A stretch of DNA of 64,000 nucleotides from a virus (taxonomy: Duplodnaviria > Caudoviricetes), in IMG/VR virus record IMGVR_UViG_3300046804_004123, positions 1-64,000 of that record; one strand, given 5' to 3'. Under the pieces are notes generated by a model that saw nothing but the letters and a program-made list of their open reading frames with translations, was not told where the DNA came from and searched no databases. Positions within the stretch are counted from its first letter, which is position 1, and every line of letters starts with the position of its first letter. Made by a program: the position numbers and the translations under genes. This document shows, piece by piece, positions 20,339 through 63,051 of this stretch.

Positions 20339-20420
20339 TGCCCCCAGTCAGATTTGAACTGACAAGCCTCGTAGGCGGTTGATTTTGAGTCAACTGTGTT
20401 TACCGTTTCACCACAGGGGC
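20339..20420 (-). tRNA. trnL: tRNA-Leu(CAA)
   Basis: GCCCCTG acceptor, GTTGA-CTCAAAA-TCAAC anticodon arm, long variable arm, GTTCAAATC T-loop; CCA not encoded. Confidence 0.92.
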
Positions 20421-20424
20421 AAGG

Positions 20425-20497
20425 TGCTGGTTGCGAGGATCGAACTCGCCTGTATCCGATTATGAGTCGGGTGCTTTCACCAGATAGCTAAACCAGC
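20425..20497 (-). tRNA. tRNA with CAT anticodon (elongator Met or Ile2)
   Basis: GCTGGTT/AACCAGC acceptor, CCGA-CTCATAA-TCGG, GTTCGATCC. G1-C72 is paired, so it is not an initiator tRNA. Confidence 0.9.
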
Positions 20498-60742: not shown

Positions 60743-61375
60743 TTAGACCCATTCAAGTGCTTCCGCAACTGTTGGAAATTGTTCGGAAAACACCTTCTTA
60801 CATTCCAGAGCAATGTCCATATGCTCTTTCTGTGTTCCATTTTTTTCACGAAGGTTGATATAATGAATCCAACTGCGGCAGGATCCAGTCATATAAATGC
60901 GTGTGGGCGTTGCTAGGGGCAATACAAACCTTGCACATTCCTTTGCTACCCCCTTATCAAGAAGTTCCTTGTAGAGTTCCATAGATGCCTGAAAATGATC
61001 ATTAATCTTCAACCAAAGATCCTGTTTCACATCTTTGGAAAAATCATCAATAGAATTCTGACGATTTTTGGTATCCTGACGGCGGAGATCGGGCACAGGA
61101 ATCTCACCCAATAGAGAAGAATCTGCATAACGTTGAGAAAACTCTTGGAACGTAAACGAACGGTGCCTCAAAATCTGTGCTGCAATCCCACGAGTCGTCT
61201 CAATCTCCAGAGTCATAGAACTTTGTTCAAACACAGACCAATGATTATGCTTAATACAATAAGCAAGCAACTTGGCATAGTTTTCGTTGTCTTGATTCGC
61301 AGGATTGCTAACTCGTGCAATAAACGCCATTGTTTTTTCTGCATCGGGGGTTACACTGATAAGTTTTACAGTCAT
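60743..61375 (-). CDS. thyX: Flavin-dependent thymidylate synthase
   Basis: H.SVFEQ, QILRHRSFTFQEFSQRY, E.AR.VLP. Confidence 0.97.
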   Translation of the reverse strand: MTVKLISVTPDAEKTMAFIARVSNPANQDNENYAKLLAYCIKHNHWSVFEQSSMTLEIETTRGIAAQILRHRSFTFQEFSQRYADSSLLGEIPVPDLRRQDTKNRQNSIDDFSKDVKQDLWLKINDHFQASMELYKELLDKGVAKECARFVLPLATPTRIYMTGSCRSWIHYINLREKNGTQKEHMDIALECKKVFSEQFPTVAEALEWV

Positions 61376-62272: not shown

Positions 62273-62303
62273 AAAAAGTTATATACATAACACCATTTTA
62301 CAT

Positions 62304-62330
62304 AAAAAAAGGGGGGAAGTCAATCCCCCG
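62304..62330 (-). terminator. Intrinsic terminator overlapping a sigma70 promoter
   Basis: GGGGGA-TTGACT-TCCCCC-C-T7; TTGACT-N17-TAAAAT. Confidence 0.75.
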
Positions 62331-62336
62331 ATGTTA

Positions 62337-62438
62337 TCATGTAACTTGTGGTTGCTTTGCCATATTAATCTGGGCAAGATGAAGGAGTTTTTCTCTCCTT
62401 GCTTTTTGCTTCAGATAACGAACGAAGTAAGTATTCAT
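62337..62438 (-). CDS. Small basic peptide (33 aa)
   Basis: MNTYFVRYLKQKARREKLLHLAQINMAKQPQVT; GGAGG ribosome-binding site; ATGA coupling to the upstream gene. Confidence 0.65.
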   Translation of the reverse strand: MNTYFVRYLKQKARREKLLHLAQINMAKQPQVT

Positions 62439-62599
62439 TTTACACCTCCCTTGGATTTCTCCATGTGAAGTTTGTTACCACTTTCATCAACATAAAACAT
62501 TGTACCACGATATATTTCTACATGTGGTTCAATCTTAAATGTTTGATTTGGGCGATCTGTGGTGTCATATTCAACACCACGATATACGACTTTAGACAT
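62435..62599 (-). CDS. DUF4278-like small protein (54 aa)
   Basis: MSKVVYRGVEYDT...IYRG; TAAGGAG ribosome-binding site; directly downstream of a glutamine-type aptamer. Confidence 0.8.
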   Translation of the reverse strand: MSKVVYRGVEYDTTDRPNQTFKIEPHVEIYRGTMFYVDESGNKLHMEKSKGGVK

Positions 62600-62630
62600 T
62601 AGGTTTCTCCTTAATGGTTTAGGTTAAAGA

Positions 62631-62684
62631 GCGTTCCTTCAGTCGGCGTTTGCGTTCGCTATTTGAGAATAGCGAATGAACGAT
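62631..62684 (-). ncRNA. Glutamine riboswitch-like aptamer (glnA / Downstream-peptide class), copy 2
   Basis: ATCGTTCA-[TTCGCTATT ctca AATAGCGAA]-CGCAAACGCCGACTGAAGGAACGC; P1 CGTTC/GAACG. Confidence 0.75.
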
Positions 62685-62938
62685 CCGTTCCGCGTCGGCT
62701 TACTTCCGTCCTATTCAGTTTTAGCACTTAAGTTTTACAACATCCTTTCGGAGTTCTAATAGCAATCGGTCTTCTCTTCTTTGGTCTACTACATCGTCGT
62801 TTTTAACGATGTCCATTAGTTACCACGCTGCGTCGCAACTTATTGTCACATAATTTGATTTGGCAAGTTGAGGCGTAGAAATAGAAAGAAGCGGAACCCA
62901 TGCCAAAAGCAAAAGTGCTTTAGTCATAGGATGAACGG
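62685..62938 (-). ncRNA. Glutamine riboswitch-like aptamer, copy 1, with an ORF inside the P2 loop
   Basis: CCGTTCA-TCCTAT...(about 210 nt)...ATAGGA-CGGAAGTAAGCCGACGCGGAACGG. Confidence 0.6.
62721..62927 (-). pseudogene. Signal-peptide-bearing 68-codon ORF interrupted by an in-frame TAA
   Basis: MTKALLLLAWVPLLSISTPQLAKSNYVTISCDAAW*LMDIVKNDDVVDQRREDRLLLELRKDVVKLKC; TAA at 62820-62822. Confidence 0.55.
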
Positions 62939-62947
62939 TAGAGGATT

Positions 62948-63000
62948 ATTATACCTCTAGTTACATTATATATGCAACTAATTTTGTAACATTTGTTACA
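62948..63000 (-). promoter_or_regulatory. NtcA-type box plus two candidate -10 hexamers
   Basis: TGTA-ACATTTGT-TACA (GTA-N8-TAC at 62986-62999); TATAAT at 62965-62970 and 62948-62953. Confidence 0.7.
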
Positions 63001-63021: not shown

Positions 63022-63051
63022 AAAAAAATACCTGGAATTTTTTTTCCAGGT
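63022..63051 (-). terminator. Intrinsic terminator
   Basis: ACCTGGAA/TTCCAGGT stem followed by ATTTTTTT. Confidence 0.7.

Follow-up and report, generated by a model that had tools for sequence, protein, structure and literature searches.

How can a protein-coding gene and the sensing domain of a riboswitch be written in the same nucleotides? The question is raised by the minus strand of a 64,000-nucleotide stretch of viral DNA (the window), positions 1 to 64,000 of IMG/VR record IMGVR_UViG_3300046804_004123, where a small open reading frame (ORF) lies between the two halves of a glutamine aptamer at 62685..62938. The window comes from a 104-kb metagenome-derived virus record. An earlier note on this DNA had described a whole ORF nested in the loop of the aptamer helix P2. 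The aptamer proves to be complete, its architecture recurs among related cyanophages, and we incline toward a reading in which folding of the aptamer and translation of the nested ORF exclude each other.

A complete glutamine aptamer around a 211-nucleotide loop

Positions 62685..62938 constitute a complete glutamine (glnA-type) aptamer, here called aptamer 1, whose variable P2 terminal loop has grown to 211 nt, so that the full span of the RNA is 254 nt. Its parts, and the gene within its loop, are as follows.

62926..62938, minus strand: 5' half of aptamer 1, CCGTTCA followed by TCCTAT (model positions 1 to 14)
62938..62933, minus strand: P1 5' strand, followed by an unpaired A at 62932 and the P2 5' strand at 62931..62926
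62721..62927, minus strand: small-protein gene (family A) nested in the loop, a single frame of 68 codons with a TAA break at codon 36 (62822..62820)
62685..62714, minus strand: 3' half of aptamer 1, ATAGGA followed by CGGAAGTAAGCCGACGCGGAACGG
62714..62709, minus strand: P2 3' strand, followed by the core CGGAAGUAAGCCGACGCG at 62708..62691 and the P1 3' strand at 62690..62685

Both helices pair perfectly, as the earlier note had read them: P1 (62938..62933 with 62690..62685, CCGTTC/GAACGG) and P2 (62931..62926 with 62714..62709, TCCTAT/ATAGGA) each consist of six Watson-Crick base pairs with no mismatch. The gap of about 210 nt seen between the halves is the 211-nt loop 62925..62715, with the note's position 62715 being off by one base (62714). 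The start codon does overlap the P2 5' strand, ATG at 62927..62925 covering its last two bases, and the final stop codon (TAA, 62723..62721) does lie 6 nt ahead of the P2 3' strand. P2 opens with U-A, C-G and C-G directly 3' of the unpaired A, as is required for the glnA family RF01739 of Rfam, and the conserved core GGACGGAAGUA ... GGAACG aligns to the model consensus. The matching core of the compact aptamer of phage DSL-LC02 aligns to the Rfam RF01739 consensus, and over 27 nt the 3' half of aptamer 1 is identical to its compact counterpart in phage S-CREM1.

Detection of the split form was examined with an insert-tolerant covariance model (R1), whose structure annotation was limited to P1 and four pairs of P2 and which was trained on 33 compact aptamer-1 sequences and nine split ones carrying a different ORF family, the window and its own ORF family being excluded. 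On both strands of the 64-kb window, R1 gave a single match, 62939..62682, over the full model length (55.7 bits, E = 8.3e-12); since this match is unique in the window, the split aptamer is more than a chance resemblance. Split aptamers were found by R1 in 23 of 23 family-A loci outside the training set, at 54 to 63 bits, and in phage P-HM2 too. With Rfam at the gathering score, only two tRNAs were reported from the window, and aptamer 1 gave no Rfam match at the gathering score or at an E of ≤10. The same was true of P-SSM4, in which both aptamers are split and Rfam gave no RF01739 match at an E of ≤0.1. Standard covariance searches therefore miss the split architecture, as the earlier note had suspected. 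At permissive thresholds, the compact aptamer 2 of the window matches RF01739 with 33.6 bits (gathering score, 35) and an E of 7.8e-5. Natural loop-free orthologues, i.e., compact copies of aptamer 1 at the same site, occur in S-PM2, S-CREM1, and DSL-LC02; against the RF01739 threshold of 35, the copy of DSL-LC02 scores 35.6 bits and that of S-PM2 scores 24.4 bits.

The 68-codon ORF is not open in this copy, contrary to the earlier description. In the ORF listing, it consists of two pieces in the same frame, 62927..62820 (35 amino acids) and, after one Leu codon, 62816..62721 (31 amino acids), the break being an in-frame TAA at codon 36. Every relative examined has GAA there (23/23 family-A loci), and the encoded residue is Glu in all 37 aligned proteins. 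Position 62822 is C instead of A in all 17 covering contigs from four sequencing runs (1, 5, 10, and 1 contigs); no run contains more than 0.48 of the sampled words. Because no relative has TAA at codon 36, this copy is either a recent nonsense allele (a pseudogene) or the product of an assembly error; the RNA architecture is intact. The insert alone gave no blastn match in 50,697 phage records, and the region as a whole matched phage records only from window position 62714 downward, i.e., from the 3' half onward.

Distribution and conservation of the nested genes

In an IMG/VR sample of at least 120 loci, picked by scanning for one exact pattern of the aptamer-1 3' half, 79 of 120 carry a nested ORF in at least one of the two aptamers; these and the following state counts are among the matches listed and are not population frequencies. 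Four isolates also carry nested ORFs, all annotated as hypothetical proteins: P-SSM4 (PSSM4_169.2 and 169.3) and P-HM2 (PHM2_179 and 180) have them in both aptamers, and DSL-LC02 and S-SRM01 have them in aptamer 2. The earlier treatment of the arrangement as a single curiosity is not borne out by these numbers. The ORF-in-aptamer design is widespread and conserved and recurs in most of the related cyanophage loci sampled. The states of the two aptamers are distributed as follows.

Aptamer 1: ORF-bearing loop of 177 to 213 nt in 53 loci and compact in 60; loop of ∼500 nt without an ORF in 2; cut by the contig end in 5
Aptamer 2: ORF-bearing loop of 113 to 176 nt in 56 loci and compact in 35; no pattern-resolved state in 20; cut in 9
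Aptamer 1/aptamer 2: nested/nested in 30 loci, compact/nested in 21, nested/compact (the type of the window) in 16, and compact/compact in 18; the remaining loci are cut by a contig end or have no resolved joint state

The two loci with ∼500 nt between candidate aptamer-1 halves (L018 and L100) have no ATG at P2 and may contain another insert or a false pairing. In the 20 loci without a resolved aptamer 2 (L006, L012, L017, L022, and others), an ATG follows the aptamer-2 5' half and the 3'-half pattern is absent within 700 nt; these loci may have a divergent 3' half or another arrangement.

The position of the nested ORFs relative to the aptamer is highly regular. In all 113 nested aptamers, AUG begins 3 to 6 nt past GUUCA, in or beside the P2 5' strand. 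Of the 58 ORFs in aptamer 2, 56 end at the UGA within the conserved GACUGAAGGAACG, and of the 31 family-B ORFs, which lie in aptamer 1, 28 end at the UAA within the conserved GGAAGUAAGCC.

Several observations indicate selection on the P2 helix across the ORF. First, the mean contiguous helix over distinct haplotypes was compared with that obtained after 3' strands had been shuffled among loci (2,000 shuffles). Nested aptamer 1 has a mean contiguous P2 of 5.3 bp, against 4.23 ± 0.21 bp after shuffling, and nested aptamer 2 has one of 7.18 bp, against 4.09 ± 0.32 bp; none of the 2,000 shuffles reached the observed value in either case, and some P2 helices of aptamer 2 are 14 to 15 bp long. Second, base pairs are exchanged as pairs, with UCCGA/UCGGA in some copies and UCCAA/UUGGA in others and, likewise, UCCUUA/UAAGGA and UCCUCA/UGAGGA. 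In this last case, the 3' strand is coding, and a Lys/Glu/Gly codon covaries with the leader base. Third, the fourth P2 pair (alignment A1) is CG in 24 sequences, UA in 9, AU in 4, GC in 1, UG in 1, and another combination in 2. The P2 covariation that the earlier note had named as a check in homologues with and without the insert is thus supported by both compensatory changes and the shuffle test, and these comparisons point to a helix that is under selection and kept by compensatory changes. In L013, L026, L077, and other loci, the residue before the D-A-K-A-D end of the aptamer-2 ORF (Lys, Glu, or Gly) covaries with the paired leader base. At this codon, the helix appears to outweigh the protein.

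The nested ORFs, taken from the same loci, form two clusters by blastp, with 89 and 24 members. The larger holds 31 aptamer-1 ORFs, called family B, together with 58 aptamer-2 ORFs, and the two sets are related (hhalign probability of 91.5%, E = 8.7e-7); the smaller is family A, which includes the ORF of the window. Family A has a median dN/dS (ratio of nonsynonymous to synonymous divergence) of 0.33, family B one of 0.20, and the aptamer-2 ORFs one of 0.56; median dS across the ORF families is 0.37 to 1.3, and differences fall mostly at third positions. Among 54 diverged proteins from the larger group, no alignment column is invariant apart from those of two Cys residues. By the sequence criterion (lengths of 50 to 72 amino acids, dN/dS of 0.20 to 0.56, and two invariant Cys), the nested ORFs do not fit the pattern of cis-acting leader peptides, whose sequence is not conserved as that of a protein. 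They have the hallmarks of genes under purifying selection, with small two-cysteine helix-loop-helix proteins as their predicted products.

Family B matches phrog_6471 (E = 1.6e-30), and aptamer-2 ORFs match phrog_504 (E down to 5.6e-16); family A, represented by the protein of locus L104, has no PHROG match at an E of ≤0.01, and searches of the nested proteins against Pfam gave nothing above noise. Kinship of family A with the phrog_504 and phrog_6471 groups was considered and rejected, as hhalign was not significant (E = 0.011 to 0.17), and the common pattern is limited to a hydrophobic start, a Cys, two helices, and a Cys. Family A is represented in a large protein collection by 253 protein clusters of 63 to 72 amino acids, all unnamed or hypothetical except for one row labelled site-specific recombinase XerC by a source. 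Among 185,579 species genomes, it has a single match (locus L126), with 100% identity over residues 23 to 68, on a 3.8-kb contig of a metagenome-assembled genome labelled Acetobacteraceae; this is probably phage DNA binned into that genome.

The AlphaFold model of a phrog_504-type protein has helices at residues 11 to 23 and 29 to 46, with Cys11 and Cys51 at their outer ends and a predicted local distance difference test score (pLDDT) of 82.2. In the model of family A, which has a low mean pLDDT of 56.6, the helices are at residues 31 to 43 and 49 to 66, flanked on the outside by Cys31 and Cys68, and an extra hydrophobic N-terminal helix precedes the Cys-helix-loop-helix-Cys layout. The N terminus of family A (MTK and a hydrophobic run) might, as a guess, be a Sec signal peptide. 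Foldseek searches with the nested proteins gave no match in the PDB at an E of ≤0.001 and only uncharacterised cyanophage proteins among viral models, and the best score in the ESM Atlas, 0.87, was to an unnamed viral cluster. NblA is a small helix-loop-helix protein induced by nitrogen starvation. NblA-like and CP12-like roles were both considered for the nested proteins, and neither had a sequence or fold match in support.

The leader operon around the aptamers

By its sequence features, the region reads as the leader of a small cyanomyophage operon, comprising a putative promoter, tandem glutamine aptamers, a DUF4278/IF17-like ORF, a 33-amino-acid ORF, and a terminator. The features around aptamer 1 are, in the direction of transcription, as follows.

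63022..63051, minus strand: terminator-like hairpin (63051..63030) and T run, closing the upstream gene and marking the 5' border of the unit
62948..62977, minus strand: putative sigma-70-type promoter, with −35 TTGCAT (62977..62972), an 18-nt spacer, and −10 TATAAT (62953..62948)
62940..62958, minus strand: inverted repeat AGAGG ... CCTCT, bracketing the putative −10
62628..62684, minus strand: aptamer 2, a glutamine aptamer of compact form (P2 of 9 bp, loop of 4 nt)
62607..62612, minus strand: Shine-Dalgarno-like AAGGAG with a presumed function, 7 nt ahead of the start codon (ATG) of the downstream ORF
62435..62599, minus strand: 54-amino-acid ORF with two YRG motifs, DUF4278/IF17-like, the presumed regulated gene
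62337..62438, minus strand: 33-amino-acid ORF, with a 4-base overlap with the stop of the 54-amino-acid ORF
62303..62329, minus strand: intrinsic-terminator-like hairpin and T run, the end of the unit

The −10 element ends 10 nt before the C of CGTTCA. The promoter was not listed by a consensus scan because its −35 element matches at only 3 of 6 positions; relatives of the window's type have TTGACT-17-TATAAT-10 nt-CGTTCA, and a TATAAT matching at 5 or more of 6 positions occurs within 30 nt upstream in 87 of the 120 loci. The arms of the inverted repeat differ elsewhere yet stay complementary (GGTC/GACC, GGGAG/CTCC, and AGGGG/CCCCT), and the repeat could be an operator or form an RNA hairpin in read-through transcripts. 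Contigs of two RNA libraries span approximately 62458 to 62949, with almost none beyond 62950, and those of a DNA run continue. This edge hints no more than weakly at transcription beginning near the predicted promoter; starts cannot be read from contigs, and RNA libraries may contain DNA.

The 54-amino-acid ORF begins 28 nt past aptamer 2. It scores 20.1 bits (E = 8.1e-4) against Pfam DUF4278 (PF14105), below the cutoff of 25.3, and is therefore called DUF4278-like rather than a member of the family; it also matches phrog_5049 (E = 1.5e-8). Among 96 resolved loci, 92 have a small ORF with M..YRG after aptamer 2. The 33-amino-acid ORF has no Pfam or PHROG match, and a small ORF stands at the same place in S-PM2 and S-SRM01. 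Elsewhere in the window are a 210-amino-acid ORF (60743..61375, minus strand), which we take, from a motif in its translation, to resemble flavin-dependent thymidylate synthase (ThyX), and two adjacent tRNA genes (20339..20497, minus strand; 54.6 and 53.6 bits). In S-PM2, P-TIM68, and S-SRM01, the riboswitch unit is closely followed by thymidylate synthase genes. In P-SSM4 (L004:119-304), a manA RNA (RF01745, 184.1 bits) lies ∼90 nt upstream of the split tandem aptamers.

Aptamer folding and translation of the nested ORF

We consider it somewhat probable that the region is a leader operon with an ORF-bearing aptamer in which aptamer folding and nested translation are mutually exclusive and expression of the two proteins is reciprocal. 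Nucleotides are shared among the start codon, the stop region, and the core that binds the ligand, and the transcript probably begins a few bases before P1. With this geometry, folding would sequester the AUG or translation would unfold the aptamer, as the earlier note had proposed; it is plausible that the nested ORF cannot be translated while the aptamer is folded around glutamine, and in the related families a terminating ribosome would sit on the ligand-binding core itself. At low glutamine, the nested protein would be made. At high glutamine, P1 and P2 would lock the AUG, and the tandem aptamers would switch on the DUF4278-like gene, as for cyanobacterial gifB. The glutamine riboswitch turns gifB translation on in cyanobacteria, according to Klahn et al. 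2018 (PMC6212724), and reciprocal expression is therefore the simplest logic here. The predicted glutamine sensing and regulatory effect rest on sequence and fold models.

Folding of family A adds two predicted helices to P1 and P2.

62919..62913 with 62729..62723, minus strand: P2b, a 7-bp extension helix of P2 (RNAalifold, 22 family-A sequences)
62791..62812, minus strand: 8-bp hairpin inside the ORF, over codons D-I-V-K-N-D-D-V (RNAalifold and single-sequence minimum free energy [MFE] fold)

The RNAalifold consensus predicts P1 and P2 in 22 of 22 family-A sequences, and gaps within the coding part of the alignment are multiples of three. P2b pairs codons 3 to 6 with the end of the ORF, namely its last codons and the initial base of its stop; its variation in the 22 sequences consists only of one-sided A-U/G-U changes, and it appears in the constrained fold as well. 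All 22 sequences keep the internal hairpin paired, and one compensatory change from C-G to U-A (L094) alters the amino acid (Val to Ile). The hairpin covers the most conserved peptide stretch, and RNA and protein constraints seem to overlap there. In the ligand-free ensemble, P1 has a probability of 0.94 to 0.99. A fold with P1 and P2 enforced has −67.3 kcal/mol, against −68.0 for the MFE fold, and because the difference is only 0.7 kcal/mol, a ligand could tip the balance, which is compatible with a switch.

Several points weigh against mutual exclusion. The window's own ORF is broken, so that, if the TAA is real, coupling is not needed for this genome to exist, and no Shine-Dalgarno sequence precedes the nested AUG in the window sequence. 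In family A, the stop lies 4 to 16 nt before the P2-closing base (23/23 loci) and not in the core. The ligand-free ensemble gives P2 a probability of only ∼0.10, and the single-sequence MFE fold forms P1 but not P2, with the P2 5' strand and the AUG pairing locally with codons 9 and 10. In these models, the AUG may be occluded in both folding states, and the picture of an unfolded aptamer with a free AUG is not established. Only three contiguous P2 pairs are found in 18 of 55 nested aptamer-1 copies, although at least some of these short helices, examined by eye, resume past a mismatch or bulge. P1 and the first P2 pair are invariant, and the second and third P2 pairs show one one-sided change each; such pairs say nothing either way, because the sample was chosen by an exact 3'-half pattern.

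A rival account with some weight, although we consider it unlikely, makes the nested gene a passive cargo: a permissive P2 loop would host a small gene that uses the riboswitch promoter, and the aptamer would control only the downstream gene, with no coupling. Compact aptamer-1 loops do vary freely in length and sequence (54 distinct compact forms), and the existence of all four compact/nested combinations makes the ORFs dispensable. Overlapping starts and stops are, moreover, ordinary in compact phage genomes, and in the window it is the ORF that is broken and the RNA that is intact. A loop that is merely permissive, however, accounts poorly for an AUG that lies within or next to the P2 5' strand in every one of the 113 nested aptamers and a stop that is a core triplet in 84 of 89 cases in the two related groups; a ribosome and a fold cannot act independently on shared nucleotides. 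P2 is also longer in nested forms (up to 15 bp), and family A adds the conserved P2b.

It is improbable that the split aptamer is a relic, killed by the insertion so that only the compact aptamer 2 works in the window, with the halves persisting because the event is recent. Such a history would fit the low predicted P2 occupancy without ligand, the weak contiguous P2 in some nested copies, and the failure of Rfam to recognise the split form. The split form is, however, old and diverse, with two to three ORF families at median dS values of 0.37 to 1.3, and its core is kept and its P2 compensated. Moreover, both aptamers are split in 30 of the 120 loci, where a dead aptamer would leave the operon without a working sensor. 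That the insert is a noncoding expansion, a structured RNA domain in which the open frame is incidental, is very improbable: its conserved helices (P2b and internal hairpins), with the Val-to-Ile compensatory change in L094, a fold z-score of −2.0, and a stop codon tolerated in the window, are set against a frame open in 23 of 23 relatives, the 253 family-A clusters of 63 to 72 amino acids, dN/dS below 1 with an excess of third-position changes, coding-part gaps in multiples of three, two Cys invariant across 54 diverged proteins, and a confident helix-loop-helix model for the related group (pLDDT of 82).

The locus resembles several known systems. It is closest to the cyanobacterial tandem glnA riboswitch (RF01739) that precedes gifB/DUF4278 genes, with which it shares P1, P2, the conserved core, the tandem layout, and the class of small YRG/DUF4278-like gene downstream. 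Unlike in the cyanobacterial RNAs, the phage P2 loop has 113 to 213 nt and codes for a conserved protein that starts in P2 and often stops in the core, and the split phage copies escape the Rfam model. Leader ORFs are also familiar, e.g., mgtL in the Mg2+ leader of Salmonella mgtA. A further example is the upstream ORF (uORF) associated with a B12 riboswitch of Mycobacterium tuberculosis (PMC11260477). As in these two cases, the ORF described here lies within a ligand-sensing leader, where ribosome occupancy and fold can interact. Leader ORFs of that type are, however, short and cis-acting, the peptide is not the product of interest, and their place is the expression platform or a stretch between stems, whereas the nested ORFs are 50 to 72 amino acids long, evolve as proteins, and are inside the aptamer, looped from a helix. 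Group I introns also carry ORFs looped from peripheral stems, such as the homing-endonuclease genes in T4 introns. The likeness extends to a protein gene in a terminal loop of a structured RNA, a T4-like phage, long-range closing helices, and an RNA structure that can hide a start codon. In contrast to introns, the host RNA is a metabolite sensor rather than a ribozyme, start and stop are fused to functional helices, and the nested ORF is much too short to encode a nuclease, with no sign of mobility.

The riboswitch class is known, and no description of the ORF-in-P2-loop architecture was found. Tandem glnA RNAs are noted in a passage of Weinberg 2010 (PMC2864571), and 157 glnA tandem doublets are counted in a tandem survey (PMC9481103) that left out arrangements with intervening ORFs. 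McCown 2017 (PMC5473149) gives just two glutamine aptamers in cyanophage genomes. That count and that exclusion bear on why the split architecture may have been missed. In full-text searches and in passages of PMC9964418, PMC9004378, PMC12379486, PMC2864571, PMC6212724, PMC5473149, PMC7760959, and PMC9481103, no account of an ORF inside a glutamine aptamer was found; supplements, which lie outside this scope, might mention long P2 inserts.

Aptamers are usually treated as compact noncoding domains; here, a conserved gene loops out of an aptamer helix, and nucleotides that form the sensor also belong to its start codon and, in many cases, to its stop codon. Covariance-model surveys, which report almost no phage riboswitches, miss such split aptamers, and the nested arrangement is the majority state among the cyanomyophage loci sampled. 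It is present in the model phages P-HM2 (Prochlorococcus MED4) and P-SSM4 (NATL2A), which makes it directly testable, and it bears on how phages read the nitrogen status of their hosts. A bolder version, that one aptamer is a two-way translational toggle giving the nested two-Cys protein without glutamine and the DUF4278-like protein with it, is offered tentatively. If it were true, P-HM2 and P-SSM4, with both aptamers nested, would gate three small proteins in sequence by one metabolite, the riboswitch would be one whose aptamer doubles as a coding sequence, and phage riboswitches would be greatly undercounted by models unable to span an ORF. The ORF-bearing aptamer may be a natural design for the reciprocal control of two proteins by one ligand.

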